DNA from: Blastocatellia bacterium
GTDB taxonomy: Bacteria; Acidobacteriota; Blastocatellia; UBA7656
Assembly (NCBI GenBank): GCA_035275065.1
Contig: DATENM010000145.1
Location: 89,851-113,850 of the forward strand
Direction of reading: 5' to 3'
Length of the DNA stretch: 24,000 nucleotides
A program made the translations under genes and the position numbers. The notes beneath the pieces were generated by a model. That model did not search any database, was not told where the DNA came from, and saw only the letters and a list, made by a program, of their open reading frames with translations. Positions 4,296-24,000 of the stretch are shown in pieces. Positions within the stretch are counted from its first letter, which is position 1; each line of letters opens with the position of its first letter.

Positions 4296-5987
<1,692 letters not shown>

Positions 5988-6015: not shown

Positions 6016-6067
6016 AAAACGGCTGAATCGAAGCTTGCACCGGCAAGCGATTCGATTCAGCCGTTTT
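6016..6067. terminator. Bidirectional rho-independent terminator between convergent rpoD and the zinc-ribbon protein gene
   Basis: aaaacggctgaatcga (6016-6031) pairs with tcgattcagccgtttt (6052-6067). Inner stem gcttgc/gcaagc (6033-6038 / 6043-6048) with loop accg. A4 on the left and T4 on the right give a U-tract in both orientations. The minus-strand TGA stop (6067-6069) abuts the stem. Confidence 0.8.
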
Positions 6068-7014: not shown

Positions 7015-7050
7015 CACATCTTGATTCAAGGCTTTCTCGCTTTCACTTTT

Positions 7051-7080
7051 TTGAGTCGGTGGGGCTGCGGCGATTATAGC
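7051..7080 (+). promoter_or_regulatory. Candidate sigma-70-type promoter for the 7105 gene
   Basis: TTGAGT (7051-7056), 18-nt spacer, TATAGC (7075-7080), about 25 nt upstream of the ATG at 7105. Same architecture as the candidate pgsA promoter (TTGACA-N18-TATAGT). Pattern match only. Confidence 0.3.
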
Positions 7081-7104
7081 ACAGCCGTGATAAGATGCGC
7101 TTGA

Positions 7105-8883
7105 ATGAATCTGCGCGACTGGCTCACTCGAAAGAACCTGATCATTACCGCCGTCATCCTCGGGGTGCTTGTCGCAACCGCCTGCTACTTCGCTTTGCGC
7201 AGGCCGCAGCCTGTGGAGATGGAGCGTTATGTTGCGGCGTCGTCGCTTGCCTATCTCGAAATCAATAACCTCGCGGATGTCGCCGATGGCTTGACTGGCA
7301 CACGGGCCTGGCGCGAGCTGGGGCCGGCGCTCGGGCTGTCGAGCCAGCTCCGACAGATTGGCTTGATGGCCGACCTCGTCGGGCGCACAGGACTCGGCCC
7401 CGAAGAAGTGGTGCTGGCGGGCCGCGCTCAATTGGCGCTGGCGCTCACCGATGTTGAAGCGCAGACCGGGCAGACTGACGAAGGGCCGTACCTGCACTTC
7501 AAGCCGCGACTGGCGTTGATTATCGAGACCCACGCCCGCCCGGCAACCGCCGCGCGTCTGGTCAACGACCGCGCCATCATCGTCGCGCAAAGAATCTATG
7601 GCATGACGGTGGCCCAGGAAGAAGGGGAGCACCAGGGCACGCGGCTGCTCATCTTTCGCGGCGCGAACCCCGACCGGCCACTGGTGGCGGCGGCGCTCGG
7701 CTCAGTCATCGTGTTGACCAATCACCTTGAAGCCATGAAGGCGACGCTCGACACGATTGCCGGGCGCGCGCCGGCGCTCGCCGAAGACCCAACGCTTGCG
7801 CGGCTCAAGCCCGATATGGCCGCGGGCGCAGCCGTCACTGCCTTTATTACCGAAACCGGCATCAACAAACTGATCGCCTTGTTGCCGCCGCTGGCCGCCA
7901 GTCGCTATGCCGCGGAACCCGAAACCGTCGCCTCCTTCACCGGCCTGCTTGAGCATATGGCCAGTCAGGCGGTTGCCGGCTTGCTCTACAGCGCCGAATT
8001 CAAGGACGGCGGCGTCGTGGATCGCTATCTCACGGCGTTGAAGCCGGGCATCGGCGAAGCCCTGACCGAAGCGCTGAAACCGGCACAGGGAGCCGGTTTC
8101 AAGTCACCGCAATTGATCCCCCGCAGTGCTGAAGAAGTGACGCTGCTGAACATCGAGCGCGCCGGCGAATTGCCTGAGCGCGCCCTGAAACAGCTCGCGC
8201 CCCACGTTGATATTGTCGCCGGCCTCGCCCTGCGCGAGTTCGTCATCAACCTGCGTAAGCAATACGGTATTGAAGGCGGCGAGTCGGTCGGCGATGCCAT
8301 CGGCCATGAAATCACCCTGATCAATCTCGGCGACGGCGGCTCGCAAGCCATGCTTTTGAGCGTCAAGGATAAAGACCGGCTCGCGCCCTTCATCACGCGC
8401 TACCTGACGCGCGGCGATGCGAAGATCACGACTGACAGTGTCGGCGGCACAGAGCTGCGCCTGTCGTCGAATGAAGATGGCCGCGCCGCCGCTTTCATCG
8501 GCAGCTATCTGGTGCTGGCGACCCAACCACAGATCACACAGTTGCTGGAGGCGCAAGGTGCCGGCAGTGTGGTGGCCGCGGATGAAAGACTGCAAACGGC
8601 GATGGCGCTGCGTCCGCCGGGCACTTCAATCGTTTCACTGAAGCCGGCAGACCGGCGGGCCGGCGAGCTGTTGCTCGCCGTTTCAAGGCTGACTCGCGTG
8701 ACCGATGGCTCGCGCGAGCTGTTGGAGCAAGAGCAGGTTCGCAGAGCTTTGGACGGCCTGCCGCCGACCGTCGGCTTTACAGAGTTCCGAGCCTATGGCA
8801 TCTACAACGAAACGCGCTCGGCCATCGGCAACTTCGGCTTGCTGGCATCGCTGGTCGGCGGCGGCGGGGACGCCGAGAAATGA
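7105..8883 (+). CDS. Membrane-anchored protein of unknown function, DUF3352-like
   Basis: 592 aa. N-terminal signal-anchor (LIITAVILGVLVATACYFAL). The mature part opens with a pattern I associate with DUF3352 proteins (..YVAASSLAYLEINNLADV.., later GLGPEEVVLAGRAQLALALTDVE). Family assignment is from memory, not from a search. Confidence 0.8.
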   Translation: MNLRDWLTRKNLIITAVILGVLVATACYFALRRPQPVEMERYVAASSLAYLEINNLADVADGLTGTRAWRELGPALGLSSQLRQIGLMADLVGRTGLGPEEVVLAGRAQLALALTDVEAQTGQTDEGPYLHFKPRLALIIETHARPATAARLVNDRAIIVAQRIYGMTVAQEEGEHQGTRLLIFRGANPDRPLVAAALGSVIVLTNHLEAMKATLDTIAGRAPALAEDPTLARLKPDMAAGAAVTAFITETGINKLIALLPPLAASRYAAEPETVASFTGLLEHMASQAVAGLLYSAEFKDGGVVDRYLTALKPGIGEALTEALKPAQGAGFKSPQLIPRSAEEVTLLNIERAGELPERALKQLAPHVDIVAGLALREFVINLRKQYGIEGGESVGDAIGHEITLINLGDGGSQAMLLSVKDKDRLAPFITRYLTRGDAKITTDSVGGTELRLSSNEDGRAAAFIGSYLVLATQPQITQLLEAQGAGSVVAADERLQTAMALRPPGTSIVSLKPADRRAGELLLAVSRLTRVTDGSRELLEQEQVRRALDGLPPTVGFTEFRAYGIYNETRSAIGNFGLLASLVGGGGDAEK

Positions 8884-10071: not shown

Positions 10072-12078
10072 ATGTTGAACTGGATCAAGCGACTGTTCAA
10101 TCGGCGCGGCGCGCTCATCGCCGCAGGCATTGCGATTGTCCTCGCGCTGGCGGGGCTGTTGATTTATGTGGTCAGGCTGAATCGTCATATCAGCGCTGAA
10201 CAGGAAGCCGAAGCCGCCGCGCAAAAAATCACCGTTGAAGAGACGCGCTTGCGCCCGCCGGTGACGGACGGGCTGACGGTTTATCTGAACGCCGCTGATG
10301 CGAGGGCAACGGCGGTCTTTGCCGGCACGCGCTATCTGGCGACCTCAGGCGGGCTGATCGCGCTCGACGAGGGCGGCACGGTCAAACACCGCTACACCAC
10401 TTTCGATGGCCTGAGCGACAACGACCTGACGGCGCTGGCGGTCTTTCGTGATCGGCTCTATATCGGCACGGCAGCCAGCGGCTTGATGGCATTCGACGGC
10501 AATGGCTTCACCGGCTATCGCTTCGTCAAGCCGAAGGCGACGCGGGTGAGCGTGCTGACGGCGACAGAAAGCGAGTTGTTAATCGGCACACTCGACGGCG
10601 GCTTGTTCGAGTTTGATGGACAGCAACGCTTCACGCGCCGCTTCAATTCGGCTCCGGGAGCCGATTTCACGCGAGTGACCGCGGTGCTGCCGTTTGCTTC
10701 GCGGCTCTACATCGGCACACAGGACAGCGGGCTCTACATCTGGCGCGAAGGCCACATCGAGCACCTGACGACGAGCGACGGCTTGCCCTCACCGCGGGTC
10801 ACAGGGCTGGTCGCGCTGCCTTCGAGCGATTCGCAGTACGGCGGGCTCGCGGTAGCGACCGATTTCGGCGTCGTCGGCCTGAGCGATGCCAACGAGATCA
10901 AAGCCATCACCAATCGCCCGAACGTCACTTCGATTGCGGTGATCGGCGGGCGGCTGTTTGCCGGGCTGTTCAGCGGCGGCCTATTTGACATCAACGCCGA
11001 ACGGACGAAGTCGAGCCCGAACGAACCGCGTACCGGCCTGTCGGAAACGCCGGGCCTGCCGGCGAATGCGCCGACGACGGTCTTTGCCGATGATGGCGGA
11101 TTGTGGGCGCTGACGCGCGATGGCGCATTCGTGCGCGAGGCGGGGGCGGGCGGGCCGGCCTTCGAGCCGGTCGCGGCATCGCTGGTCAGCGAGCGCATCA
11201 TCACCGGCGACCACATCACCGGCGTGGCGCTCGATGGCGCCGCCCACCTGTGGGTCGGCTATTTCGACCGCGGCGCTGATGTGATCGCGCCGGAAACCAG
11301 CGAGCGCCTGGCGCACATCGAAGACGAGCGCGTCCGTGAAGTGAACTTCATTACTTTTGACCCGGCATCCGGGCAGACGCTGATTGCCACGTCGCGCGGC
11401 CTCGTCACTGTTGATGGGCGAAGGCAACAGACGGTGATGACCCGCGAAAAGAATGGCTTAATCAGCGATGCCATTGCTCACGTTTCTTTGATGACGGCAA
11501 ACACCTCGGCGGCGGGCGCGATGGTGCTGGCGACGGCAGGCGGCTTGACGGAAGTGGCGGGCGGGCGGGCGCGGTCGCTGACCTCGTTTCACGGCCTGTC
11601 GAGCAATCACCTGTATACGTCGGCGGCGGCGGGCTCGCGGCTCTTCGTCGGCAGCCTGGCGGGGCTGATCGAGCTTGAGGGCATGCGCGTCGTGCGAACC
11701 TACAAGACGTCGAACTCGCGCCTGTCACACGACTGGGTGACGGCGCTGGCGGAAGCCGAGGGCACCCTTTATGTCGGCACCAACGGCGGCGGCGTTGATG
11801 CGTTGCTGCCGACCGGCGAGTGGATCAGCTTTGCCAATGATCGCGATGTCGGCAAATTCGAAGTCAATCAGAACGCCATGTACTTTGACGGCGAGCGATT
11901 ATATGTCGGCACTAGCGATAAAGGATTATTGGTATATAATACGCGCGCGCGGAGTTGGAAACGGCTCAGCGCCGGCCTGCCGTCGCCGAGCGTGACGGCC
12001 ATCACAGGCGATGACCGATACGTTTATATCGGCACCATGAATGGCCTTGTCAGGATTGAGAAGCGAGTCGTCGGATAG
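10072..12078 (+). CDS. Membrane-anchored double beta-propeller protein (two-component-regulator-propeller / Reg_prop-like repeats)
   Basis: 668 aa. N-terminal signal-anchor (GALIAAGIAIVLALAGLLIYVV). About 14 repeats of the blade motif hydrophobic-(Y/W/F)-(I/V)-G-T-x2-G-L-x-x-(F/Y)-D, e.g. RLYIGTAASGLMAFDG, ELLIGTLDGGLFEFDG, RLYIGTQDSGLYIWREG, TLYVGTNGGGVDALL, RLYVGTSDKGLLVYN, YVYIGTMNGLVRIEK. No kinase or HTH output domain follows. Confidence 0.85.
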   Translation: MLNWIKRLFNRRGALIAAGIAIVLALAGLLIYVVRLNRHISAEQEAEAAAQKITVEETRLRPPVTDGLTVYLNAADARATAVFAGTRYLATSGGLIALDEGGTVKHRYTTFDGLSDNDLTALAVFRDRLYIGTAASGLMAFDGNGFTGYRFVKPKATRVSVLTATESELLIGTLDGGLFEFDGQQRFTRRFNSAPGADFTRVTAVLPFASRLYIGTQDSGLYIWREGHIEHLTTSDGLPSPRVTGLVALPSSDSQYGGLAVATDFGVVGLSDANEIKAITNRPNVTSIAVIGGRLFAGLFSGGLFDINAERTKSSPNEPRTGLSETPGLPANAPTTVFADDGGLWALTRDGAFVREAGAGGPAFEPVAASLVSERIITGDHITGVALDGAAHLWVGYFDRGADVIAPETSERLAHIEDERVREVNFITFDPASGQTLIATSRGLVTVDGRRQQTVMTREKNGLISDAIAHVSLMTANTSAAGAMVLATAGGLTEVAGGRARSLTSFHGLSSNHLYTSAAAGSRLFVGSLAGLIELEGMRVVRTYKTSNSRLSHDWVTALAEAEGTLYVGTNGGGVDALLPTGEWISFANDRDVGKFEVNQNAMYFDGERLYVGTSDKGLLVYNTRARSWKRLSAGLPSPSVTAITGDDRYVYIGTMNGLVRIEKRVVG

Positions 12079-12192
12079 CCTGCGAGCGCGAGCCAAACGC
12101 CCCTGCAACGTTGGCCCGCGCATTCAGGGCAAGCGTGATCGAATCACCACTTCCGCCTTCGGTTTTCGCGGGTGAGCGGCCCGCGCTTCAGG

Positions 12193-14595
12193 ATGCTTAT
12201 GAAATCAAGTGGACGCACCTCTCTGAGTTTAATGGCACGGCGAATGGCTGCGCTGCTGGTCTTGTTGCTGATTCCCGTGGCGGCGCAGGCGCAGTCAGGC
12301 GTGCTGATTCCGACCAGCGCCCAGAAGCCTGACTCGGCAATCCTCTCGCTCGACGAGATGACGGTCGACATCAAGATCGATAACCAGTACGCGCGCGTCC
12401 GCGTCGTGCAAATCTTCGGCAACCACACAGCCCGCGTGCAGGAAGGCCAGTACGTCTTCCTGATCCCGACGACCGCCTCGATCTCGGACTTTGCGGTCTG
12501 GGACGGCGACGTGCGCATCCCCGGCGTCATCCTTGAAAAGCGCCGCGCCGAAGAAATCTACGAAGACCTGGCGCTGCAATCCATCGATCCGGGACTGCTC
12601 GAACAGGAGCGCGATGATCAGTCGGACACCGCCTTTACGGTCAAGATCACGCCCATCCCGGCGTATGGCACCAAGCGCCTGGAGCTTGAATACACCGAAG
12701 CGCTGCCTGTGGATAATCTCGAATCGTACTTTTCGTTCCCCTTCAAGCCGAGCCAGTACGGCGCGCAGACGGTCAACCACCTGTCGCTTAGATTACAGAT
12801 CGCCAGCAAGTTTGCGATGAGCGATCTGAGCGTGCGCAGCAAAATCTATCCGCTCAACTTCATCGATAACCGCCCTGAGTACAAGTCTGCGTCGTTCGAG
12901 GGCAACGACATCCAACTGACCGAGGACTTCTCGTTCCGCTACGGCCTGAACGTGCCGCACACGGCGTTCGAGTTTCTCGCCTATCGCGCGCCGGAGCGCA
13001 TTACCGCCGACGAGTTGCGCGACCCGCGATTGGCCGAGCGCGAGCCCGACGGATATTTCGAAGCGGGCGTCGTCTTCAATGAAGCGGGCCGCGCCCCCGG
13101 CGAAGTCGCCGCGCCCGAACCGCGCTCGGTGCTGGTCATGCTCGATACGTCGCTCTCGATGCAGTGGGAGAAGCTCGACCGCGCTTATGAAGCGACCGAA
13201 GCGCTGCTGCGCTCGTTGACGCCGCAGGACACGTTCAATCTCATGCTGTTCAACGATGATGTCACCGCCTTGAGCGACAAGTCGGTGGACGCGCGCCCCG
13301 AGCAGATCGAGCGCGCCCTGTCATTCATCAAGTCGAGTTACCTGTCGGGCGGCACCGATCTGGCCGCCGCACTCGAACGCGCCACGCAATTGTCGAAAGC
13401 GATGCCGGCCAAGAAGGAGCGCGCCATCGTGATGATCACCGATGGCAACTCGTCGCTCGGCACGACGCGATTGAAAACGCTCACGGAACGCTTTCAGAAA
13501 GCCAACGACGCCGGGTCGCGCGCCCGCCTGTACGTATTCGGCATCGGCTCGGACACCAACCTGCGATTGCTCGGCGAGCTGGCGCGGGCGTCGCGCGGTT
13601 ATTTCGATTGGTCGCGCGAGACCGACGATCTGGAATTCAAGCTCAAGGGCTTTGTCAGCAAGATAGGCCGCGCGCCGATTGATACCTTGAAGCTGGCCAA
13701 TACGGACGCGGCGAACTTCTATCAGGTCTATCCCGATTACGAGGCGACTGCCTATGACGGCACACGGCTGTCGTTCGTCGGTCGCTACAAGCGGCCCGGC
13801 CCGGCGCAGCTCGCAATCACCGGCAACAGTGAAGGCAAGGCGGTGCGGCTCAATCAGCAGGTCGAGCTGCCGGAGCGCGATGACACGCACGACCATGTGC
13901 CGCGCCTGTGGGCGCGTGCGCGTGTGGACGCGCTGCTCAGGCTGATCGCTTTGAATGGCGAGACCAAAGAGGCGATTGACGAGATCATCGCGCTCTCAAA
14001 GAAGTACAAGTTCGTGACGCCCTACACGTCGTTTCTGGCGGCGCCGCGGTCGCTGCTGCGGCCTCGCGTGATTCGCCCCGGCGACCCTGTGTTGCGGGTT
14101 CGCGCCGATCAAGCGATTGTTGAAGTGACCGCGGTCTTCCCCTTCGGCTTGACCAGGCGATTGACTTATCTGAAGGGCGAAGATGTCTGGGAGACGCGCT
14201 TCGTCGCGCCGCGCGAGATGAGCGACGGCGTCTATCATTGCCGCCTGTTGCTGGTCGACAACAAAGGCCGCGCCTATCAAGAAGACAAGAGCTTCGTCAT
14301 TGATAGCCGCCCGCCGCGCCTTGAGCCGAAGTTAGATCAAACCGTCGCCCATGCCGGCGAAGAGTTAACGATCACTGTGCGCGCCGACAGCGACACGCGG
14401 GTGATTGCGGCGCGCGTCTTTGGCGCGCTGCCGGTGCCCATCGTTTGGGATGCAAAGTCAAAAGCCAATGTCGGCCACCTGCGCATCCCCGCGGGACTGC
14501 CATCGGGAACCTACACGATTCAGGTCACCGCCGAAGACTTCGCGCACAACTCGACGGTCGCCGAGGTGATGGTCGAAGTGATTGGCGGCAGTTGA
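12193..14595 (+). CDS. Secreted VIT domain + von Willebrand factor A (VWA) domain protein with Ig-like C-terminal region
   Basis: Signal peptide (MARRMAALLVLLLIPVAAQA|QS). VIT-like region (LSLDEMTVDIKIDNQYARVRVVQIFGNHT..YVFLIP..ISDFAVWDGDVRIPGVILEKRRAEEIYE). VWA with full MIDAS (DTSLS at 13144-13158, GGTDL, ITDGNS). C-terminal beta-rich region (GTYTIQVTAEDFAHNSTV). Start is ambiguous: the track gives 12172 (non-ATG), with ATGs at 12193, 12199 and 12232. Confidence 0.9.
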   Translation: MLMKSSGRTSLSLMARRMAALLVLLLIPVAAQAQSGVLIPTSAQKPDSAILSLDEMTVDIKIDNQYARVRVVQIFGNHTARVQEGQYVFLIPTTASISDFAVWDGDVRIPGVILEKRRAEEIYEDLALQSIDPGLLEQERDDQSDTAFTVKITPIPAYGTKRLELEYTEALPVDNLESYFSFPFKPSQYGAQTVNHLSLRLQIASKFAMSDLSVRSKIYPLNFIDNRPEYKSASFEGNDIQLTEDFSFRYGLNVPHTAFEFLAYRAPERITADELRDPRLAEREPDGYFEAGVVFNEAGRAPGEVAAPEPRSVLVMLDTSLSMQWEKLDRAYEATEALLRSLTPQDTFNLMLFNDDVTALSDKSVDARPEQIERALSFIKSSYLSGGTDLAAALERATQLSKAMPAKKERAIVMITDGNSSLGTTRLKTLTERFQKANDAGSRARLYVFGIGSDTNLRLLGELARASRGYFDWSRETDDLEFKLKGFVSKIGRAPIDTLKLANTDAANFYQVYPDYEATAYDGTRLSFVGRYKRPGPAQLAITGNSEGKAVRLNQQVELPERDDTHDHVPRLWARARVDALLRLIALNGETKEAIDEIIALSKKYKFVTPYTSFLAAPRSLLRPRVIRPGDPVLRVRADQAIVEVTAVFPFGLTRRLTYLKGEDVWETRFVAPREMSDGVYHCRLLLVDNKGRAYQEDKSFVIDSRPPRLEPKLDQTVAHAGEELTITVRADSDTRVIAARVFGALPVPIVWDAKSKANVGHLRIPAGLPSGTYTIQVTAEDFAHNSTVAEVMVEVIGGS

Positions 14596-14684
14596 TCGCG
14601 TGACTTTTTCCGGTTCCGAGCGAACCGCCTGGCATCAACCGTTTTCTTGTTTTCGGGTTTGTCTTCACGATTTATTGATCGCAG

Positions 14685-17600
14685 GTGCTTATGCGCAAAC
14701 GAATCTTTCTGACCGTCGCGATTGTCCTTTCGGTCGCTTCCCTTGCTGTTGCCACCCTGTTTGCACAGCGGGCGGCGCAGCGCGCGAAAACCTCAACTCC
14801 GAATGCTGCGGGTGGCCAGGCCACCGCCAAAGGCAAGCCGCCGGCGAATCGCAACCAGAGCGCCGCCACCGCGCCCTTGCGCCAGCCCGACCCGAATCGC
14901 GCCCCGCAAGCGGCGGTTGACGAAGCCCTCTACACCAAAGAAGAGTTCTTCGGCACTCAGGCGTCCGTCGCGCGGCCATATGCCCCGGCGCTTGAGCGCG
15001 TCGGCACCTTGCTTGTCCAGTATCCGAAAGATGCGCGATTGCACCTGCACGCGGCGCGGCTCTCTGAACGGCTCGGGCAATTCGATAAAGCCGCGACCGA
15101 GATGGCGCAATATGCCGACCTCCGCCGGCGCTCGCCCGATGCCTTGCGCCGGCTTGCGGTCTTCTATCACAACCGCGCCCGCTTCGCCGACGAAGTCAAA
15201 ACGCTTGTCGAGCTCGGCAAAGCCTTGCCGGTGACCGAGCGCGCACCCATCTATAAACAGGCCGCCGGTATCGTGCGCGCCTATTCGCTCAAAGAGTACA
15301 AGCCGGCAGATTTCTTCGCCGAGCTGGTCGCCGCCGACCCGTCGAATATTCAACCGGTCAAAGACTACGTTGAAGAGCTGCAACTCGCCGAGAATCGCAA
15401 AGAGGCGCTGGAAGTGCTGACGACCTTCCAGCCGAAGTTCGCCGGTCAACTGGCTTACTTCTTGAAGACCCGCGCCGCGATACTCGAAGCGCAAGGCGAC
15501 CGCCGCGCCGCCGAACAGGTTTATGACGCGGCCTTCGATCCGACGTGGCCGCGCGCCATCAGCGGCGATTATTACGAGCTGCTGCGCCGCTTCGGTCGCT
15601 ACCGCGCGGTGCGCCGTGGCTTGCAGGAGCGGGCGCGCACCGCGAGCGACCTCAACACCGTCGCGCGCCTGTTCAGCATCTATTCTTACGAAGGCAACTT
15701 CGAGCCGGCCTCGCGCCTGCTGCGCGACCTGGAAGCGCGCCGCGCCGGTCGCGCCTCGTCACGCCCTGCGACGACGGGCGGCAACGCACAGCCAGCAGCC
15801 GTGAGCGCGTCGTGGAATGGCCGCGAGCTTGAAACCGTCGCGGCATTGTTCGCCTCCGTAGGCGACTTCGATCAGGCGTCGCGCTACCTCTACACACTTT
15901 ACCTGACGGGCGGCTTGCAGCCCGGCAGCGCCTCGCGCGAAGAAGCCTTGCACCGGCTCTTCCGCGTCATGCTCGACGCCGCCGGCACGCCGACGCGGGT
16001 GGCGGCGGGCGACCTGTCGCTCTACAAAGACGTGGCGCAGGTAGACGCCCACCCGGGCTTTATGAACGGCGTGCTGTCGCTGATTCTTTCCGGCACCAAC
16101 CCGGCGAGCGAATATGCGACGCAAGAGAAAGCCGCGGCCAGCTATTTCAACCGCGCCTTCGCCTATCGCATCTTCACCGCATTCAAACAGGAGTACGCGC
16201 AGTCGAAGTACCTCGCAGACATGTACCTCGGCGTCACCGAAGTCTTCGCCGGCCTCGGCGAGCATCGGCTGGCGATTGAAGCGGGCCGCGAATTCCAACA
16301 GCTCTATCCGACCTCGCCGCATTACACGGACGTGTCGCTGCGCATCGCCGACGCCTACGTGGCGCTGAAAGACCGCGCCGGCGAGCGCGCCGTGCTGAAC
16401 GATTTGCTGGATCGCCTGGCGCGCTCGCGGCCCAAAGGGCGACCGCTGATCGCGACGACGGCGAAGCGCTGGACCTATGGCATCTCGCCGGCTTTTGACA
16501 AACTCGTGGACCGCATTCGCTATAACATCGAAGCCTACAGCGACACCTACGACCCGACCGAAGACAGCTCGGCAACCAGCTCGAACGAAGGCGACAGCGA
16601 CGTGGATGCGGACGAGCCGACCAACTTCGGCGATGAAAGCGACAAGCGCGGGCCGACCTACAGCAGCGTGCTTGAGCGTTACGTCGCGTCGCTTGCCGCC
16701 GATGAGAAGAAGACGGAAACGGTCACCTTCTTCTGGAATGAAATCCGCAAGCATCCGGGCGAAGAAGGTCTATACGAACGGTTCCTGCGCTGGCTCGGCT
16801 CGGCCGAGCTGGTCAACGAGCAGTTGAAGGCGTACAACACGGCGATTCGCCAGTTCGATTCCAACACCTGGTATCACCGGCTGGCGCGCTGGTATGTGCG
16901 GCAGAAGCGCGGCAGGGAATTGCAGCGTTATTCGCGGCAGCTCATCAGCATCTTTGACGAAGAAGACATCACTGAATACCTGTTGCGCTTTGCCGGTTAC
17001 GGCGCGTCGGCGGCGGGCGATTCGCTGAACTGGGATCAGAAGCTGGCCTTCGACCTTTACAGTTACGCGCACCAGCGCTTCCCGCAAAACCTTTTCTTCG
17101 TGCGCGGCATGCTGACTTACCTGGCGAATAACAAAGAGGTTGGGCCGTGGGCGCAGCTATCGGCGCAGTATTACTTCGCCGACCGCTCGATCCGCGAGCC
17201 GTTCCTCGCCTACCTGTCGAGCAACAACCAACTGCGCGACCGCTACCAGAAAGCCAGAAGTCAGGAGTCAGGAGTCAGGAGTCAGAATACCGGCGCAACC
17301 GTCACGACTTATCACGTCTTTGCGGCAGACGCGGCGCTATGGCTGTCGCATCACGACGAGGCGATTGATGCCTATCGGCAACTGACGGCACTCTATCCGG
17401 GCGAGCCGCAGTATGCCGACCGGCTGGCTGACCTGACGCGCTCGTTCGGCCAGCGCTCCGACAAGCTCTACGAAGAGTCCGCGCAGGTGCTGTCGCACAT
17501 GGCCGAAATCTACCCGTCGGAGCATTCGTACCGCATCAAGGCCGGTGAAGCCTATGCCGAGCTGGGCGATTTCAAGCGCGCCGGCGCTGAGTGGAACAAG

Positions 17601-20600
17601 CTGACCCAGCTTGAGCCGGGCGAGCGCAACACCTATCTCGAAGTCGCGACGGTCTTCTGGGACTACTATCAATTCGATGATGCGCTGCGCGTCTTCAAGG
17701 AACTTCGCAGCCAGACCGGCGACCCGACCATCTATGCCTATCGCATGGGCGCGGTCTATGAAGGCAAGGGCGACATTGACGCGGCCATCGCCGAATACGT
17801 CAAGGTGTTGCCGGAACCCGGCGACGGGCGCAGCACCGTGGCCAAACGCCTGGCGCAACTTTCCAGACGCGCCGGCCTCGCTGACAAGATCGCCGCCGCT
17901 TATAACCAGGCGCGCACGGCTAAACCGGACGACTGGCAGTTAGTGATTGGCTACGCGCTCTACAACGCCGAGCGCGACCATCAGGCCGAGGCGCTCGCGG
18001 GCTTGCGCACGGAAGTATCGCGCTCATCAAACGTCGAGTTTCTCGAAAGCGTGCGCGATCTCTTCCAATATATCTTGCGGCCCGAAGACGAGCAGCAGGT
18101 CATCGCGCGCTTGACTCAGGTGGCGCGCGACGAGCGCGAAGCGATGACCTATCGCTTGCAGCTCGCGGCCTTCCTGGAACGCCACAATCAGGTGGACGAG
18201 GCGATCAAGAACATCGACAAGCTGGTCGCCGATTACCCTACGAACGTCGGCGTCGTCGAAGAAGCCTCGCAGTTCTACTGGCGCGCAGGCTTGCTCGACC
18301 GGGCGCTCGATCTCTACAAGCGGACGCTCGCCAGGGCGCAGGGGCCGAACCGCCGATTGCTGACCTTGCAGTACGCTCGTCGCTTGAGTGAAGCCAATAA
18401 GCTCACGGACGCCGAAGCGACGCTGCGCGCTTTCTACAACGAGAACCGCAGCGATACGGAAGTTTTTTCGGAGCTGGCGCGCACGCTCGGAGCCGAGAAC
18501 AAGATGAACGACCTGGCGGCGCTTTATCAGGACGCCTTCAAGGACGTGAAAGAATCGGGGCTCACCGGCGACGACGCCAAAGCGCAGGTCGCCGATCTGC
18601 GCGCCGGGTTGATTCGCACCTACACGGCGCTCGGCAAGTTCAACGAAGCCGTGGACCAGCACATCGAGATCATCAACCTCTTCCCCGAAGACGCCGAGCG
18701 GCTGGCCACGGCTTACGAGTACGCCGAGGCGCACAACCTGCTCGACCGGCTGACGGCTTACTACGAGAAGCTGACGAAAGAGTCGTATAAGAACTATCGC
18801 TGGCAGGTGGTGCTGGGCCGCGTCTACGAGCGGCGCGGCAACCTGGCGGGCGCGACCGAGCAGTATCGCAACGCCGTCACCAACGAGCCGGAGCGCACCG
18901 ATTTTCGGCTGACGCTGGCGAACCTGCTGACCCGGCAGCGGCGCTACGACGACGCCATCACCGTCTTGCGCGAGGGCTGGCAGTTGGCGGGCCGCGACCC
19001 ATCGTGGCTGACAGAGGTGGCGCGCATACAGGTGTTACAGGGCAAGCGCGACGATGCGGTGCAGACCTTGCGGCAGGCGCTCGCTTCCAAGAAAGAGACC
19101 AAGGTCGCAGATCAAATCGTCGTCGCCCAGCGGCTCGCTTCGTGGGGCCTGTACGCCGAAGCCGTGCGCATCTATGAAACGGCGCTCGCGGCTTATCCCA
19201 AGGTGATGAAGGACGAATACCTCGGCGGCGATGCCATCAGCGGTTACGTACAGGCGCTGGTTCGGACACAGCCGGCGGGGCAGGTCTATCAAAAGCTCGC
19301 GCGCATGCGCTCGCAGTACGCCGCCATCGGCAGTAACTCGTCGGACACGGACAGCTATCGCGCCAAGAACGTCGTGCAGTATATCGATAGCGCCTTGCGA
19401 ACAGACTTTGCCCGCGGCGTGATCGATTACGCCGGCTCGCAGGATGCTGCCGCCGTCGCGCAGGCGCTCACCGCCGAGACGGCGAAGCTGACGGCTTATA
19501 CGGATGCCGACGAGCTGCGGCGCTATCTCGGCATTGCTCGCTCCGCCAATCTGGTTGAAGTCGAAGAGCGATTGCAGACGCGTTTGAAGGACGTGGCCTA
19601 CGAGGGCCGCCCGAAAAATGCGCCGCAGCCGACCACGCAGGACACCAGCTATTACAGCGAGCTGCGCGCCCTGGTGGCGTTTTATGATCGCCACGCGGCT
19701 TACGCCAAGGCCGCCGAGGTAATCGCCGGTGAATTGAAGCGCGACCCGTACAAAGATCGCTTCGATTATCAAAACCAGATTGCCACCCAGTACCGATTGG
19801 CAGGCGACACGACGCGCGAGCTGGAATCGTTGCGCGCGGCCTATCAGAGCGCCAGCGGCGCTGAAGTGACGACTAACACGGACTGGGTCGAGCGCTATCT
19901 GACCTTGCTCTATGCGGCGAACCAGCGCGACGAGCTGGAACGCATCGCCGCCGCCGACAGCCCTTATCAACTGCAACTCGTCAACTTCTTGATCGAGAAG
20001 AATGACAAGGCGCTCGCCCGCCGGGCCATCAACAGCGCGGCGCGCTCGGTCGCCTGGAAGGCGTCGCGCAGCGGCGAAGTCGGCCTGTTTATGCGCGACA
20101 CCTCGGCGGAAACCGAAGGGTTCTTCAAGCGCGCCCTCGACATCAAGAGCATCGGCGACATGCTCAACCGCAAGGTGGATGGCAACCAGACGCTGGTCGG
20201 CGATGACTGGTTCGTGGCGGCGCGGAATTATGGTTACTGGCTGGGGCTGACGCCGCAGCGCGGCAAAGAGAGCCTCGACTTTATCGCCGGCGAGATCGAA
20301 GGCCACCCTTCGAGCGAGAAGGCACAGCTTGAGCTGGCGGCCTACTATCTCGACCACAAAGACCTGACGCGGGCGGCGGCGCACACGGAGCTTGCCGCGG
20401 AGCTGGCGCCGGCGAGCACCGATGTCATCATCGCTCGCGGGTTACTGGCGATGGCGCGCGGCGACCGCAAGGCCGCCAGCGAACAGTGGGGCCGTTTGTT
20501 GAGCGGGCGCGTGTCGGTCGCCGATGCGCAGACCTACTTGAAGCTGATGGCCGATAACAACATGCTGCGCGAAGCGCTGCCGCCGCTGCAAAACTTCATC

Positions 20601-22517
20601 GTGAGTTTCGTCAACTATGCGACGCGGCGCAAGAACAGTGATGGCGATGTCAGCGGCCTCGATCCGCTGGTGCGCGAGATCGCGAATCGAGCGCGCGGCG
20701 ACGCCAGGCTCACTGGTGACGTGGCGACTTTCTTCCACACCACGATGACCGAGCTTGGCGAGAATACCTCGATTGGCGAGTTGCTGATCGGTGAGAACCT
20801 GTTGCCCGAATCGGCGCTGGCCAGCATCTATCGCGCCGTCCATCAACGCTTGAGCGATCATGCGGCGGCGACGTTTGGCACCAGTGGTTATGAGACCGGC
20901 GAAGCGTCGCGGGCGCTCGGCGACTTCCGCCGCCAGTTCATCGATTACATGATTCGCAACCGCCAGTTCGACGAAGCGCGGCTGCTGGTGGCGACGATTA
21001 AGCATGAGCTGTCTGACGCACGGCTGGCGCTCAAGGCGCAGGGCGGCGACGACAGCGGCCCGACCGATGCAGAGACGCGTTACAACTGGGTGCCGCTGGC
21101 ATCGGCGCTGATCGAGCTGCGCGCCGGCAAAGATGCCGCCAAAGCCATTGCCGAGCTGCGGATGTATTGCGGGCTGGACAGCGCCGAGGGCAAGCCGTCG
21201 GGAGTTGAGCAAGAAGACGGCAGTCGCGTTCACGGCGAATGTATTAACGCTTACAATCTGCTGCTCGCCGAAGGCCGCGAAGCCGACGCCGATGCGTTGC
21301 TCTATGACGCTTATCGCGTGGCGGCGCGGTCGCGGGCGATTGACGAAGGCAGCCTCGCGGGGCTGGCCGAAATCGAAGCGCGCCGTAATCACCCGGAAGA
21401 GGCGTCGCGCTGGCTGCGCTTGCTGGTCGAGCGTTCAACCGACAACCTGCGCGCCCTGCAACTGGCCGCCGAAACCGCCGCCCGCATCGCGCATTACAAT
21501 GAAGCGATTGATTTCCGCGAGCAACTGGCGCGTGCCAATCCTGACGACGCGACCAACCGGCTAGAGCTGGCGCGGGCGATTGCCGCTTCCGGCAAGCCCG
21601 CTGATGCGCTCGAACGGATTGCGGCCTTAATTACAGAACGCGCGACGCCGAACCGCATCCGAGCGCAGGCCGCCGAAACCGTGGCCGACCTGGTTCGCGC
21701 TGACCGCTCGCTCGCTTCGCGTGCCGCATCGCTCTTTGAGCAGAAAGCCGCGCAGGGCGACGCCGGCGCATTGCTGGCGAGTGCAGCGGCGAGCGAAGCG
21801 GCGGGCAACGCCGGCGAAGCGCGCGCCGCGCTTTCGCGCATCACCGCGGGGTCGCTGGCGGCGGTGGCGCAACTGAAGCTCGGCGTCATCGCGCTTGCCG
21901 CGAACAATCAGCCAGAGGCGACGGCGAGCTTCGAGCGCGCGCTCTACCTGGACGCCGATGGCGAAGTCACCGAATCGGTGACCTACGCGATGGCCGGCCC
22001 GCGCGCCCAACTGATCGCGCTCTACAGCCGCGCCTCGCGCGACCTGGCGGCGGTGCGGCTTGCCGAAGAGGGCGGTGATTCAGGCAGCGAGCAGGACAAG
22101 CGCGCGCTGCTTAGCACAGCCGTTCGCCGGGCGCTCACCGCAGAGAATCAGCAGGCGAATAATGCAGAGGTCGAAGTTTCGTTCCAGCCGTCAATGGACG
22201 TGGCGCGGGCGCGCAGCAAAGGCTTGCGCACCATCGCCGAGCTGAACGACGCGGCGGTCGCACGGCTGCGGGTTGATCTGGTCGCGGCGCTCGTCGAATC
22301 GGCGGCGCGGCTCGGACAGTTGGATCGCGCCATCGCGCTCGAACGGCTGCGCGCCATCGAAGCGCGCAAGCCTGAGGAGAAGACCGCGATTGAAAAACGG
22401 CTCGCCGAGCTGCTGGCCGCCGAACAGGCACGGCAGGCGCGCGGCGCGCAGCTCTTGCGCATCGATCAGCAGAACACGTCGGGCGCGATCTTCACCGCGC
22501 GGGTGATCGGAAGATAG
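14685..22517 (+). CDS. Giant (2610 aa) exported TPR-like alpha-solenoid repeat protein
   Basis: Single uninterrupted 7.8-kb ORF with consistent GC3-rich codon usage. N-terminal signal or anchor (RKRIFLTVAIVLSVASLAVATLFAQRAA). Low-complexity linker, then dozens of TPR-like helix pairs (e.g. YRIKAGEAYAELGDFKRAGAEWNKLTQLEP; AYRMGAVYEGKGDIDAAIAEYVKVL; WQVVLGRVYERRGNLAGATEQYRNAVTNEP; LELARAIAASGKPADALERIAAL). Acidic disordered insert around 16541-16650. Start is GTG 14685 or ATG 14691 (AGGTG just upstream). Confidence 0.9.
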   Translation: MLMRKRIFLTVAIVLSVASLAVATLFAQRAAQRAKTSTPNAAGGQATAKGKPPANRNQSAATAPLRQPDPNRAPQAAVDEALYTKEEFFGTQASVARPYAPALERVGTLLVQYPKDARLHLHAARLSERLGQFDKAATEMAQYADLRRRSPDALRRLAVFYHNRARFADEVKTLVELGKALPVTERAPIYKQAAGIVRAYSLKEYKPADFFAELVAADPSNIQPVKDYVEELQLAENRKEALEVLTTFQPKFAGQLAYFLKTRAAILEAQGDRRAAEQVYDAAFDPTWPRAISGDYYELLRRFGRYRAVRRGLQERARTASDLNTVARLFSIYSYEGNFEPASRLLRDLEARRAGRASSRPATTGGNAQPAAVSASWNGRELETVAALFASVGDFDQASRYLYTLYLTGGLQPGSASREEALHRLFRVMLDAAGTPTRVAAGDLSLYKDVAQVDAHPGFMNGVLSLILSGTNPASEYATQEKAAASYFNRAFAYRIFTAFKQEYAQSKYLADMYLGVTEVFAGLGEHRLAIEAGREFQQLYPTSPHYTDVSLRIADAYVALKDRAGERAVLNDLLDRLARSRPKGRPLIATTAKRWTYGISPAFDKLVDRIRYNIEAYSDTYDPTEDSSATSSNEGDSDVDADEPTNFGDESDKRGPTYSSVLERYVASLAADEKKTETVTFFWNEIRKHPGEEGLYERFLRWLGSAELVNEQLKAYNTAIRQFDSNTWYHRLARWYVRQKRGRELQRYSRQLISIFDEEDITEYLLRFAGYGASAAGDSLNWDQKLAFDLYSYAHQRFPQNLFFVRGMLTYLANNKEVGPWAQLSAQYYFADRSIREPFLAYLSSNNQLRDRYQKARSQESGVRSQNTGATVTTYHVFAADAALWLSHHDEAIDAYRQLTALYPGEPQYADRLADLTRSFGQRSDKLYEESAQVLSHMAEIYPSEHSYRIKAGEAYAELGDFKRAGAEWNKLTQLEPGERNTYLEVATVFWDYYQFDDALRVFKELRSQTGDPTIYAYRMGAVYEGKGDIDAAIAEYVKVLPEPGDGRSTVAKRLAQLSRRAGLADKIAAAYNQARTAKPDDWQLVIGYALYNAERDHQAEALAGLRTEVSRSSNVEFLESVRDLFQYILRPEDEQQVIARLTQVARDEREAMTYRLQLAAFLERHNQVDEAIKNIDKLVADYPTNVGVVEEASQFYWRAGLLDRALDLYKRTLARAQGPNRRLLTLQYARRLSEANKLTDAEATLRAFYNENRSDTEVFSELARTLGAENKMNDLAALYQDAFKDVKESGLTGDDAKAQVADLRAGLIRTYTALGKFNEAVDQHIEIINLFPEDAERLATAYEYAEAHNLLDRLTAYYEKLTKESYKNYRWQVVLGRVYERRGNLAGATEQYRNAVTNEPERTDFRLTLANLLTRQRRYDDAITVLREGWQLAGRDPSWLTEVARIQVLQGKRDDAVQTLRQALASKKETKVADQIVVAQRLASWGLYAEAVRIYETALAAYPKVMKDEYLGGDAISGYVQALVRTQPAGQVYQKLARMRSQYAAIGSNSSDTDSYRAKNVVQYIDSALRTDFARGVIDYAGSQDAAAVAQALTAETAKLTAYTDADELRRYLGIARSANLVEVEERLQTRLKDVAYEGRPKNAPQPTTQDTSYYSELRALVAFYDRHAAYAKAAEVIAGELKRDPYKDRFDYQNQIATQYRLAGDTTRELESLRAAYQSASGAEVTTNTDWVERYLTLLYAANQRDELERIAAADSPYQLQLVNFLIEKNDKALARRAINSAARSVAWKASRSGEVGLFMRDTSAETEGFFKRALDIKSIGDMLNRKVDGNQTLVGDDWFVAARNYGYWLGLTPQRGKESLDFIAGEIEGHPSSEKAQLELAAYYLDHKDLTRAAAHTELAAELAPASTDVIIARGLLAMARGDRKAASEQWGRLLSGRVSVADAQTYLKLMADNNMLREALPPLQNFIVSFVNYATRRKNSDGDVSGLDPLVREIANRARGDARLTGDVATFFHTTMTELGENTSIGELLIGENLLPESALASIYRAVHQRLSDHAAATFGTSGYETGEASRALGDFRRQFIDYMIRNRQFDEARLLVATIKHELSDARLALKAQGGDDSGPTDAETRYNWVPLASALIELRAGKDAAKAIAELRMYCGLDSAEGKPSGVEQEDGSRVHGECINAYNLLLAEGREADADALLYDAYRVAARSRAIDEGSLAGLAEIEARRNHPEEASRWLRLLVERSTDNLRALQLAAETAARIAHYNEAIDFREQLARANPDDATNRLELARAIAASGKPADALERIAALITERATPNRIRAQAAETVADLVRADRSLASRAASLFEQKAAQGDAGALLASAAASEAAGNAGEARAALSRITAGSLAAVAQLKLGVIALAANNQPEATASFERALYLDADGEVTESVTYAMAGPRAQLIALYSRASRDLAAVRLAEEGGDSGSEQDKRALLSTAVRRALTAENQQANNAEVEVSFQPSMDVARARSKGLRTIAELNDAAVARLRVDLVAALVESAARLGQLDRAIALERLRAIEARKPEEKTAIEKRLAELLAAEQARQARGAQLLRIDQQNTSGAIFTARVIGR
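17255..17288 (+). repeat. Tandem heptanucleotide repeat (AGTCAGG)x3 + AGTCAGA inside the giant CDS
   Basis: cagaAGTCAGGAGTCAGGAGTCAGGAGTCAGAat; repeat core 17259-17286 (28 nt), translated in frame as RSQESGVRSQN. The flanks CAGA... and ...AGTCAGAAT are identical to the reverse complement of 3566-3585, which has 2 units instead of 4. Confidence 0.9.
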
Positions 22518-22529
22518 AAGGTGATAGTT

Positions 22530-24000
22530 ATGAAAACCACAAGAGCGTTTGTCGTTCTCGTCCTTGTCATTGCGGCGCTGTGGCACGCGTCAGACGGCCA
22601 GCCGCAGCGGCCCCTTGCCGATCAACTGCGATTGGCCGGGGCGCTGCCGCGCGGCGCGCTCGTTTATGTGCAGGCGCGCGACCTGTCGGCGTTGATGAAG
22701 GCGTGGATGGCTTCGACCGTGCGCAACAAGTTTTACGCCAGCCCGAGCTACACCGCCTTCTCGAAGTCGCGCGTCTTTTTGAAATTCCAAGACCGTCGCG
22801 GCGACTTTGAAAAGGCGCTCGGCTTCGGCATTGACGAAGACCGGCTGACGGAGCTAGCGGGCGGCGCGTCGGCAGTGGCGGTCTATGACATCGGCAAGCT
22901 CGACATGGCCTTTGTCACCGAACTGCCGCGCGAGCGGGCGCTGCTGACCACGATGTTCAAAAGGCTGCCGCAGTTTCAGGAGCGCAATGCCGACGGCGGC
23001 ATCTACTACGCCAAGGACGTGCAGACCGACGGCGGCAGGCTCAGCCAGCAATTCTGTTTTGCGCACGTCGGCGGCAAGTTGATCGTGACGACGAGCGAAG
23101 GCTTGATGATCCGCGCCCTCGCCGCGGTCAAGACCAACGGCGCGGATTCGCTGCTCGGCGACGTGATGGCGCTGGCCGAGCAGGCCAAAGGTTTCGCCAC
23201 GCACGACCTGACGATCTGGCTCGATCAGGCGCGCTTGAACCGCGACCGCCTGTTCAACAGCTACTGGATTCATCAGAACGTCGGCAAAGAGTTGAACGGC
23301 ATCGAAAGCGGCTTGCTCGACCTGCGCATCACGGCGCAAGGGTTGACCGAGCAGCGTTACTTCAAGTTGGCGGCCGGGGGCCGGGGGCCGGGGGCCGGTT
23401 CGCAGGCCGATGGTGAAGCGGGCTCGTTGAAAGGCAGTGACGCGGCGGCGCTGTTGAAGTTCGCGCCCGCCGACGCCCAGCTCGCAGAGATTCATCCACA
23501 GGTCAAAGCCGAAGACCTGGCCGATACCGTGACCAGTGCGCTGTTCGGCCACCTGCCGACCGCCGAACCGACGCGGCCCGATGTGTCGCGCCCGTCTTCC
23601 TCGGATGACGACAGCGGCGGGCGCACAGAGCGTTACAGCCAGCTCGATGCGCGCTTTGACGTCGACGTTGACGACGAGCAAGCGCCGCCGCGCGGCAACG
23701 CGCCGGCTCGCAAAGGCAAGGCAGAGGCCGCGCCGCAGACCGGGCCGACTTCGTTCGTCGCCGCGATGACCAGGCTCGCGCCGGTGGCGGTATGCGAGCT
23801 GACGCGCTCGAAAGCCGATCCCGACCGGCCATTCGTTCACTTCGAGCGCGCCGTGGTTGTTGAGATGAAGAGCGAAGCGGCGATAGACCGCGCGGCGCTC
23901 GAACGCGCCATCGTCGAAGAGATGCGGGCGCGTTTCGTCGTCGCCGGCGTAGACCCGCGCTTCACCTGGCAGGATGACGCTGGCGTCCGCGTGCTCGGCC
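22530..24000 (+). CDS. Secreted protein of unknown function, DUF3352-like (partial; runs off the window end)
   Basis: Not in the ORF track because no stop falls in the window. Hand translation from ATG 22530 gives 490 codons with no stop. AAGGTGA SD (22518-22524) lies 5 nt upstream, directly after the giant gene's TAG (22515-22517). Signal peptide MKTTRAFVVLVLVIAALWHA|SD. The mature N-terminus (LPRGALVYVQARDLSALMKAW ... LAGGASAVAVYDIG) parallels the 7105 product. Codon usage is typical of the window. Confidence 0.8.
   Translation, partial: MKTTRAFVVLVLVIAALWHASDGQPQRPLADQLRLAGALPRGALVYVQARDLSALMKAWMASTVRNKFYASPSYTAFSKSRVFLKFQDRRGDFEKALGFGIDEDRLTELAGGASAVAVYDIGKLDMAFVTELPRERALLTTMFKRLPQFQERNADGGIYYAKDVQTDGGRLSQQFCFAHVGGKLIVTTSEGLMIRALAAVKTNGADSLLGDVMALAEQAKGFATHDLTIWLDQARLNRDRLFNSYWIHQNVGKELNGIESGLLDLRITAQGLTEQRYFKLAAGGRGPGAGSQADGEAGSLKGSDAAALLKFAPADAQLAEIHPQVKAEDLADTVTSALFGHLPTAEPTRPDVSRPSSSDDDSGGRTERYSQLDARFDVDVDDEQAPPRGNAPARKGKAEAAPQTGPTSFVAAMTRLAPVAVCELTRSKADPDRPFVHFERAVVVEMKSEAAIDRAALERAIVEEMRARFVVAGVDPRFTWQDDAGVRVLG
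23372..23398 (+). repeat. Tandem heptanucleotide repeat (GGCCGGG)x~3.9 inside the CDS
   Basis: ggccggg ggccggg ggccggg ggccgg, perfect, 27 nt, encoding GGRGPGAG within a Gly/Ala-rich linker. Contains three G5 runs separated by CC. Confidence 0.85.

Follow-up and report, generated by a model that had tools for sequence, protein, structure and literature searches.

Why do four genes for exported proteins lie one behind the other on the same strand of an acidobacterial genome, and what might their products build? This question is posed by a 24,000-nucleotide (nt) stretch of DNA from a Blastocatellia bacterium (the window), in which the genes g1 to g4 occupy the plus strand from position 10072 to beyond position 24000. 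They encode a double β-propeller, a VIT-VWA protein, a giant TPR protein and a distant relative of DUF3352. A first-pass annotation had read them as a candidate envelope or cell-surface assembly. We found that two or more deep acidobacterial branches share the four genes as a conserved, co-oriented and often overlapping unit of exported binding-module proteins, and that one large branch also encodes two peptidoglycan-directed proteins in the same operon. Tentatively, we favour the reading that the products form a passive, non-enzymatic periplasmic scaffold linked to peptidoglycan remodelling.

With one genome scanned per GTDB species, the giant gene g3 was found in 316 species genomes, and we analysed the best 80 loci. 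Individual loci are cited below by L numbers. Gene content was determined by phmmer searches with the window proteins against all open reading frames (ORFs) of each locus. Denominators refer to loci with enough flanking sequence, and a locus is called deeply diverged when its giant is about 41% identical to that of the window or less. In Blastocatellia, the giant is accompanied by the VIT-VWA gene upstream (56/58), by the propeller gene (47/54) and by g4 downstream (42/43). All four genes are present in 30 of the 34 loci that can be fully judged, with constant order and strand. Deeply diverged loci retain g1 (18/24), g2 (24/25) and g4 (14/15), whereas the genes that flank the block in the window have vanished from them (0/22, 0/21, 0/6, 0/13 and 0/11). 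The DUF3352 gene upstream of the block, for example, occurs in 23 of 27 closer loci and in 0 of 21 deeply diverged ones. The synteny that a four-gene assembly presupposes is therefore strong. When the other flanking ORFs were clustered without bias, every further family stayed at 8 or fewer of about 80 loci, so that the unit consists of these four genes without ATPase, secretin or transporter. Domain scans of the window and its extension agree with this clustering and with the first reading: no ATPase, enzyme, transporter or secretin was found in the block or conserved beside it. Hundreds of relatives of the giant and of g4 are on record, all annotated as "hypothetical" or "TPR repeat protein", and a profile search of 1.84 billion representatives returned 600 clusters of the g4 family. 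In Acidobacteriota, selection maintains the four genes as an operon-like module.

The second branch came into view through distant g4-like proteins of about 565 amino acids (aa), one cluster of which has a member named Bryobacteraceae. In locus L088, genes for a propeller (641 aa), a VIT-VWA protein (793 aa), a giant TPR protein (2364 aa) and a g4-like protein (569 aa) are followed by those for a PF00905 protein (264 aa), a SpoIID protein and an M48 peptidase. Genes overlap by 4 nt in L088 and in L170. Seeding a metagenome scan with this branch gave at least 538 sites that were confirmed. Among the 80 best of them, g4 is preceded by the giant in 58 of 59 cases, and the VIT-VWA gene is present in 29 of 31. 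A gene for a protein with penicillin-binding protein (PBP) fold (PF00905) directly follows g4 in 57 of 65 loci. A SpoIID/LytB gene comes next in 42 of 48, and an M48 peptidase gene is found in 2 of 35. The SpoIID/LytB protein scores 137.5 bits against TIGR02669 (cut-off 83.3). Because the motifs SxxK, SxN and KTG are at least 90% conserved in 54 orthologues, the PBP-fold protein is probably an active acyl-serine enzyme. The extent of this neighbourhood varies: L171 contains the core and the PBP-fold gene, L170 contains the core with overlapping genes and no cell-wall enzymes, and in the Blastocatellia locus L048 a SpoIID gene directly follows g4. In the window and its relatives, neither a PBP-fold nor a SpoIID gene lies within 10 kb of the block. 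The block is thus not the property of one lineage, being present in Blastocatellia (316 species genomes) and in other Acidobacteriota. As for its role, the first-pass annotation had thought of adhesion, matrix or envelope organisation; the PBP-fold and SpoIID/LytB proteins co-encoded in sister lineages point to peptidoglycan and not to generic adhesion.

Some records raise questions about the genomes that carry the module. Twelve records titled "uncultured Clostridia bacterium" or "Heliomicrobium sp." (L017, L020, L033, L039, L043, L054, L058, L061, L067, L073, L078 and L081) contain it with 60–65% identity to Blastocatellia (30–38% in some), and these names of co-assembled metagenome-assembled genomes (MAGs) look wrong. 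Two MAGs contain two divergent giant-centred blocks each, namely L060 with L068 (JBFLVQ01, MAG010) and L045 with L051 (DATIFP01). In one such pair, the giant of one block is 41% identical to that of the window and lacks a propeller gene, and the other is 29% identical and has one. These pairs are either true paralogous modules or the product of mixed bins.

Within the window, the four co-oriented ORFs lie where they had been placed at first reading, and they are exact copies of public gene calls (Table 1). Two starts are open to g2, a GTG at 12172 (807 aa) and the publicly called ATG at 12199, with the signal peptide proper beginning at 12232 (MARRMAALLVLLLIPVAAQA/QSG; the slash marks the cleavage site). 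Likewise, g3 may start with a GTG at 14685 (2610 aa) or with an ATG at 14691. The fourth gene overruns the window, and its full length of 626 aa, ending at window coordinate 24410, was read from the source contig (ENA ERZ27257050 k141_2143770; 153 kb, soil-type metagenome, Blastocatellia bacterium). Depending on these starts, the gaps measure 93 or 120 nt (g1–g2), 89 or 95 nt (g2–g3) and 12 nt (g3–g4). In the last gap, a Shine-Dalgarno-like AAGGTGA lies between the stop codon of g3 and the ATG of g4. The suggested translational coupling of g3 and g4 is therefore plausible in the window but not universal, given that this gap is at most 20 nt in 20 of 58 loci. Across loci, the median estimated gaps are 64 nt between g1 and g2 and 78 nt between g3 and g4 (about a third being at most 20 nt), and 534 nt between g2 and g3. 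GC content is even over the block and its flanks and thus gives no sign of a recently acquired island. Scans of the intergenic regions for promoters and terminators gave nothing convincing, and neither structured RNAs (Rfam) nor tRNAs were detected in the window.

Table 1. Position and nature of the block genes and related features in the window
Feature	Positions	Strand	Description
g1	10072..12078	+	668 aa; probably signal-anchored double (14-blade) Reg_prop β-propeller without kinase or helix-turn-helix output; from ORF list, Pfam and PDB matches
g2	12199..14595	+	798 aa; secreted VIT-VWA protein (ITIH-like) with two C-terminal Ig-like domains; from Pfam and ITIH matches
g2 MIDAS DxSxS motif (DTSLS) in the VWA domain	13144..13158	+	accompanied by GGTD and (T/S)DG; from orthologue conservation
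g2 top-conserved segment KFVTPYTSFLAAPRSLLRPRVIRPGDPVLRVR	14008..14103	+	end of the ITIH-homologous region; contains G-D-P
g3	14691..22517	+	2608 aa; giant TPR α-solenoid with N-terminal signal/anchor, then a low-complexity linker
g3–g4 spacer	22518..22529	+	12 nt; AAGGTGA Shine-Dalgarno-like motif
g4	22530..24000	+	first 490 of 626 aa; secreted α/β protein, remote DUF3352 relative with a predicted TP0453-resembling fold
Upstream DUF3352 protein	7105..8883	+	592 aa, signal-anchored; PF11832 2.4e-7; remote g4 paralogue, outside the conserved core

The junctions within the block host various additional genes. Between g2 and g3, five species carry a gene for a Y1 (IS200/RAYT-like) transposase of about 150 aa (L005, 9232–9678; also L007, L015, L031 and L037), which could be a domesticated or a recurrently inserting element; the window has 89 nt at this place. 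At the same junction, eight loci (L023, L028, L038, L039, L041, L049, L051 with two copies, and L054) encode a secreted family of about 230–250 aa with YD/RHS-like repeats and the C-terminus ...RT(I/L)(T/S)YY. Between g3 and g4, L072, L076 and L082 contain an ORF for a membrane-anchored protein of about 310 aa with no annotated function, a family that clustering found in five loci.

Where would the four proteins meet? Each of them contains a single hydrophobic segment at the N-terminus, with no transmembrane segment besides, and this export signal is kept in the orthologues of g1 (46/47), g2 (56/57), g3 (22/24) and g4 (49/50), as expected if all four are exported. The segment of g1 (residues 11–38) is flanked by charges and probably anchors the protein in the inner membrane; the same is probably true for g3. 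In g2 we recognise a cleavable signal peptide (AQA/QSGVLIP), with the AxA/QSGVLIP site preserved in 56 of 57 orthologues. No lipobox occurs in the orthologue sets of g2, g3 or g4 (0/50 for g4). The C-terminus of g2 (...VMVEVIGGS) has neither a sorting signal nor a transmembrane segment, and no LPXTG, PEP-CTERM or outer-membrane export signal was found in any product of the block. Because the signals are of the Sec type only, g1 appears to be anchored in the inner membrane and signals for outer-membrane export or sorting are lacking, we infer that the products assemble in the periplasm. Of the "periplasmic or surface scaffold" in the first-pass annotation, the first location is thus the better supported one; the same missing signals and the anchoring of g1 argue against the second.

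The protein on which such an assembly might form is the giant g3. Pfam detects many TPR families in it, and the AlphaFold model of residues 61–1200 (pLDDT 80.6) is an unbroken, all-helical array of hairpins with few disordered loops, in keeping with its first description as a giant TPR protein. The linker that follows the N-terminal signal or anchor is rich in Lys, Pro and Ala. Homologues measure 2400–2750 aa at 30–97% identity, and an alignment of 24 sequences (30–100% identity) is almost free of indels and contains 130 invariant residues. Since indels are nearly absent and so many residues are invariant, this conservation suggests a defined architecture with many fixed contacts. Foldseek analogues of the model are the IFT-A subunit TTC21B, Ski3, Ctr9 and the TPR domain of OGT; at the level of the predicted fold, g3 comes closest, among solved structures, to scaffold solenoids of large complexes. 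These observations led us to infer that the g1–g4 assembly forms on the giant solenoid.

Is g3 a member of a TPR family with a known role? Its best partial NCBIfam match is PrsT (TIGR02917; 3e-36), the TPR lipoprotein of the PEP-CTERM system. PrsT belongs to an envelope or surface sorting system; with 124.6 bits against a cut-off of 312.2, this assignment was rejected, and g3 has no PEP-CTERM signal. A weak YbgF-like match (2.4e-11, 44 bits) also remains below its cut-off of 90. Proteobacterial NlpI, LpoA, CpoB/YbgF and LbcA are periplasmic TPR adaptors that scaffold or regulate PBPs and cell-wall hydrolases. The giant resembles them in its TPRs and, in sister lineages, in being co-operonic with PBP-fold and SpoIID/LytB proteins, although its homology to them does not extend beyond generic TPRs. 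These adaptors measure 200–700 aa and are usually lipoproteins, and we know of none with a VIT-VWA, propeller or DUF3352 partner.

The product of g2 contains a VIT domain (PF08487; 1e-22, 80.5 bits) and a VWA domain (VWA_3, PF13768; 4e-18, 66.3 bits), both above cut-off, followed by weak C-terminal matches to DUF4625 and the Ig-like Big_13. Human relatives are the inter-α-trypsin inhibitor (ITI) heavy chains ITIH4 (2e-27) and ITIH1 (3e-24, over residues 51–629 of g2) and, more distantly, PARP4 (1e-6). The MIDAS residues (DxSxS, GGTD and (T/S)DG) are at least 90% conserved in 57 Blastocatellia and 29 distant-branch orthologues. Domain scores, ITIH1 alignment and motif conservation thus bear out the initial description of an ITIH-like VIT-VWA protein with a complete MIDAS. 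The entire VIT-VWA-C-terminal region is shared by sequence with mammalian ITIH1–4 and the vault protein PARP4, and the MIDAS is intact; in contrast to ITIH1–4, which end in an ITI_HC_C propeptide, the bacterial and predicted periplasmic g2 has two Ig-like domains in this place. From its motifs, g2 plausibly binds a carboxylate ligand via the MIDAS. An acidic loop of the giant (residues about 612–651) was considered as this ligand and rejected, as it is variable and absent from the distant branch.

The homology of g2 to heavy chains of the extracellular matrix and its C-terminal Ig-like domains would also suit a surface or matrix adhesion assembly, with g2 as an integrin- or ITIH-like adhesin outside the outer membrane and with the giant and the propeller organising matrix or aggregation. 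The best partial NCBIfam matches of g2 are indeed to surface-sorted proteins, namely TIGR03788, a marine proteobacterial sortase target that belongs to a surface sorting system (1e-61), and the PEP-CTERM/MSEP-CTERM VIT families TIGR02921 and TIGR04286. All three scores stay far below the cut-offs (208.9 vs 551.65, 34.7 vs 200 and 20.6 vs 150 bits), and neither an LPXTG nor a PEP-CTERM tail is present in g2; we therefore rejected g2 as a sortase- or exosortase-sorted VIT protein. The annotations of the window and of the gene-called loci include neither a sortase nor an exosortase. Furthermore, the conserved surroundings of the block include no component for export across the outer membrane, be it a secretin, an autotransporter or a type IX secretion system (T9SS). 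The predicted anchor of g1 lies in the inner membrane, and the periplasm is where the enzymes encoded with the block in sister lineages act. We consider an adhesion assembly unlikely.

The most conserved part of g2 is a segment of 32 residues, KFVTPYTSFLAAPRSLLRPRVIRPGDPVLRV, which is at least 90% conserved in both branches, unlike g2 as a whole, for which the overall identity is only 44%. This segment (KFVTPYTSFLAAPR...GDPVLRV) includes the near-invariant RPGDPVLRV. In mammals, ITI heavy chains are cleaved at the Asp-Pro bond of the processing site DPHFII and then esterified to a glycan, which links them to chondroitin sulfate. By analogy, the G-D-P of g2 might be an ITIH-like Asp-Pro processing site, which is speculative. 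The ITIH1 alignment ends weakly at D629 of g2, short of the ITIH1 site, and a search with the fragment gave no match, so that an equivalence by alignment was rejected: DPHFII has no alignable counterpart in g2, which offers only the conserved G-D-P. The same segment may equally be the first strand of an Ig-like domain. A bolder version of the peptidoglycan reading would make the assembly a cell-wall machine, in which the giant positions the PBP-fold enzyme and the SpoIID hydrolase and g2 becomes covalently attached to a glycan, either peptidoglycan or another polysaccharide of the envelope, through cleavage at Gly-Asp-Pro. We regard this version as a long shot, and we keep open that the module is a new kind of cell-wall machine.

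The name "DUF3352-like" given to g4 at first reading proved correct as a remote homology that is visible between profiles and that the Pfam model misses. No Pfam or NCBIfam match was obtained at E ≤ 10 for the part of g4 inside the window, nor a Pfam match at E ≤ 1 for the full-length protein, and none of 43 diverse family members matches Pfam DUF3352 at E ≤ 0.01. The protein encoded 1.2 kb upstream of the block, by comparison, is a true DUF3352 member that scores above the cut-off. Aligned by hhalign, a diverse g4 alignment and the family of this upstream protein give a probability of 95.7% (E 8.8e-9), or of 92% (E 6.7e-7) without the signal peptide. The match covers only the N-terminal half of g4. 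The relation is visible because the alignment is diverse: with close homologues only, the hhalign probability is 3.7%, and BLASTP of g4 against the upstream protein finds nothing. The two halves of g4 as an internal duplication were also considered and rejected, at a probability of only 13%.

The AlphaFold model of g4 (pLDDT 71.6, pTM 0.71) consists of two α/β lobes with disordered linkers between them. Its only significant fold match in the PDB by Foldseek is Treponema pallidum TP0453 (PDB 3k8g-j; E 9e-6, probability 1.0, TM-score 0.47 on the target), whereas sequence searches of the PDB with the g4 and DUF3352 profiles returned nothing. TP0453 itself is a lipoprotein whose anchor sits in the inner leaflet of the outer membrane (PMC7521688). 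It measures 250 residues, and g4 differs from it in length, in lacking a lipobox and in showing no sequence similarity to it; export is common to DUF3352 and g4. Judging from the model, g4 plausibly contacts a membrane or lipid. The protein and its relatives end in ...VYS(F/W) (window 23997–24000 region; L002, 19700–19720). This Y-x-aromatic end, which falls on a terminal β-hairpin in the model, is reminiscent of the C-terminal signal of outer-membrane proteins that periplasmic PDZ proteases recognise.

The fold of TP0453 also invites a different explanation, namely that the block forms an envelope lipid, lipoprotein or outer-membrane tether, in which g4, together with the DUF3352 paralogue, inserts into the inner leaflet of the outer membrane or binds lipid while the giant bridges the membranes. 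The probable inner-membrane anchors of g1 and g3 would suit such a bridge, and in the clade of the window a divergent CDP-alcohol phosphatidyltransferase gene accompanies the DUF3352 paralogue just upstream. These two neighbours, however, are lost from deeply diverged loci (0/22 and 0/21), no ABC or Mla/Lpt-like transporter is linked to the block, and g4 combines a modest structural match with the absence of a lipobox. This makes a tether quite improbable.

For g1, the Reg_prop family (PF07494) is matched with 5e-8 and 32.6 bits (cut-off 20.4). A motif scan combined with inspection by eye identified 14 blade motifs at a spacing of about 40–47 residues, which make two tandem seven-blade propellers. 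Matches in the PDB are designed propellers and the propellers of Bacteroides hybrid two-component sensors (3v9f, 4a2l). The protein ends after blade 14 and therefore has no output domain; correspondingly, the Pfam scan found no Y_Y_Y, kinase, receiver or helix-turn-helix domain, so that the early description as a 14-blade propeller without output stands. Hybrid two-component sensors (3v9f, 4a2l, 3va6) share the tandem seven-blade Reg_prop propellers and continue into Y_Y_Y, a transmembrane segment and a cytoplasmic kinase, receiver and helix-turn-helix domain, whereas the sole hydrophobic segment of g1 is N-terminal. Reg_prop propellers are shared with PorZ of the T9SS as well, yet on NF052228 g1 scores 44.5 bits, over 80 residues only, against a cut-off of 260, which rules out this identity. 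By analogy to Reg_prop sensors of the BT4663 type, g1 plausibly binds a glycan.

Could g1 then assist a Reg_prop histidine kinase as a co-sensor, with the other products modulating this kinase or being its regulated output? In L065, L085/L086 and L087, which are of Pyrinomonadaceae type, such a kinase is encoded directly upstream on the same strand. L065 and L087 contain a GerE-type response regulator in addition, and the sensor region of the kinase is weakly homologous to g1 (24–53 bits). This arrangement is limited to 3 loci and does not occur in the window, in the other Blastocatellia loci that were checked or in the gene-called loci. In addition, g1 has no cytoplasmic domain, and a signalling accessory would leave a 2,600-residue solenoid unexplained. 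We hold this role to be very unlikely. The kinases measure about 1000 aa (L086, 2545–5490; L087, 1666–5461; L065, 715–4895).

A divergent Bat (Bacteroides aerotolerance) or MoxR-VWA system would likewise combine a MIDAS-containing VWA protein, exported or membrane-anchored, with TPR proteins in a presumed envelope complex of poorly understood function, and L004 contains a BatA+VWA_2 gene after the block. However, g2 consists of VIT and VWA without the BatA N-terminal domain (PF07584) and has one cleavable signal instead of a double transmembrane arrangement, and the BatA neighbour is restricted to this one locus. Pfam detects neither a MoxR AAA+ ATPase nor DUF58 in the window with its 10-kb extension or in L003–L005, L086–L088, L170 and L171, and neither is among the recurrent neighbour families of Blastocatellia. 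The block differs further from these systems in the VIT and Ig-like domains of its VWA protein, in a TPR protein about 10 times larger, and in its propeller and DUF3352-like proteins, while the ATPase, DUF58 and BatA typical of Bat are missing. We agree with the first-pass annotation that the block fits neither arrangement, and give a Bat or MoxR origin little chance. L004, a locus at 50% identity, is the only one with a Bat-like neighbour; after the block and separated by tiny gaps, it encodes a Peptidase_M24 protein, the BatA+VWA_2 protein (672 aa), a 1092-aa protein and DUF7790 (14038–21841).

PADLOC anti-phage models assigned 0 families to g1–g4, and across Pfam, NCBIfam and PADLOC none of the components reaches a curated threshold for a characterised system. 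A full-text literature search (DUF3352; acidobacterial VWA, TPR or ITI; VIT-VWA; Blastocatellia TPR; SpoIID-VWA-TPR) returned no description of the module. We therefore class the block as an undescribed variant among exported envelope assemblies of VWA/TPR type, the modules themselves being known. Finally, the idea that the genes form no functional unit and are neighbours only by the shared ancestry of close genomes, which the 315-aa gene, DUF3352, the CDP-OH transferase, DUF3887 and the S8 peptidase also kept among closer relatives might suggest, is refuted as far as we can judge by flanks that fall to 0 in deeply diverged loci, where g1, g2 and g4 remain at 75–96%, and by the same gene order with overlapping stop and start codons in another acidobacterial branch.

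A few neighbours of the block deserve mention. In L002, just past the point that corresponds to the end of the window, g4 is followed on the same strand by genes for DUF3887 (132 aa) and for a secreted S8 peptidase of 1155 aa with a MAM-like C-terminal domain (20034–24034). These neighbours recur in 19 of 23 and 16 of 21 closer loci, respectively, and in none of the deep relatives. The longest ORF on the minus strand (6067–7632, 521 aa) overlaps the DUF3352 gene. Its public call covers only 315 aa (window 6067–7014; weak zinc-ribbon-like N-terminus), and the long start is therefore probably spurious. Further upstream, a 598-aa protein (1710–3506, plus strand) unites protein-kinase and PP2C phosphatase domains in one chain, beside an RpoD gene (4296–5987).

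How might the periplasmic scaffold that we favour work? All four products would cross the inner membrane by the Sec route, for which conserved signals are observed. The product of g1 would stay in this membrane by its uncleaved signal anchor and present a double β-propeller of the glycan-binding Bacteroides-sensor type. Released into the periplasm, g2 could lock onto a carboxylate-bearing partner or ligand by means of its MIDAS and the near-invariant 32-residue segment. The rigid solenoid of g3, some 2,600 residues long, would serve as a platform on which the other products are held and to which clients are recruited, and the α/β protein g4, DUF3352- and TP0453-like, may contact a membrane leaflet or lipid. 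In sister lineages, the presumed clients are encoded in the same operon, namely the PBP-fold protein with intact motifs and a SpoIID/LytB-type hydrolase or enhancer; in the lineage of the window they are not adjacent. The result would be an energy-independent multiprotein scaffold, most likely associated with the peptidoglycan layer.

Several points weigh against this proposal. The window, nearly all Blastocatellia loci and L170 lack the link to peptidoglycan enzymes, and this link may reflect lineage-specific growth of the operon and not the core function. Inserted genes are frequent at the g2–g3 junction, a hotspot of insertion, and strict co-translation is not conserved. The resemblance of the g4 model to TP0453 is at the level of the fold only (TM-score 0.47), with no sequence signal. 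A secretion system encoded elsewhere may expose the products on the surface. No cultured carrier is among the named matches, all of which are MAGs.

Acidobacteriota rank with the most abundant bacteria of soils, and to our knowledge almost nothing is known about the biology of their envelope. The module is kept in hundreds of species, and its giant is among the largest conserved proteins of these genomes, with none of the four products carrying a functional annotation beyond the names of domains. If it is a scaffold associated with peptidoglycan, a whole phylum would organise its cell-wall enzymes with parts unlike the proteobacterial adaptors. DUF3352 and the bacterial ITIH-like VIT-VWA proteins would, if the scaffold reading is true, also be placed in a functional context for the first time. 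Should g2 indeed become covalently linked to glycan, it would be a bacterial counterpart of a protein–glycan cross-link so far known from the extracellular matrix of animals.

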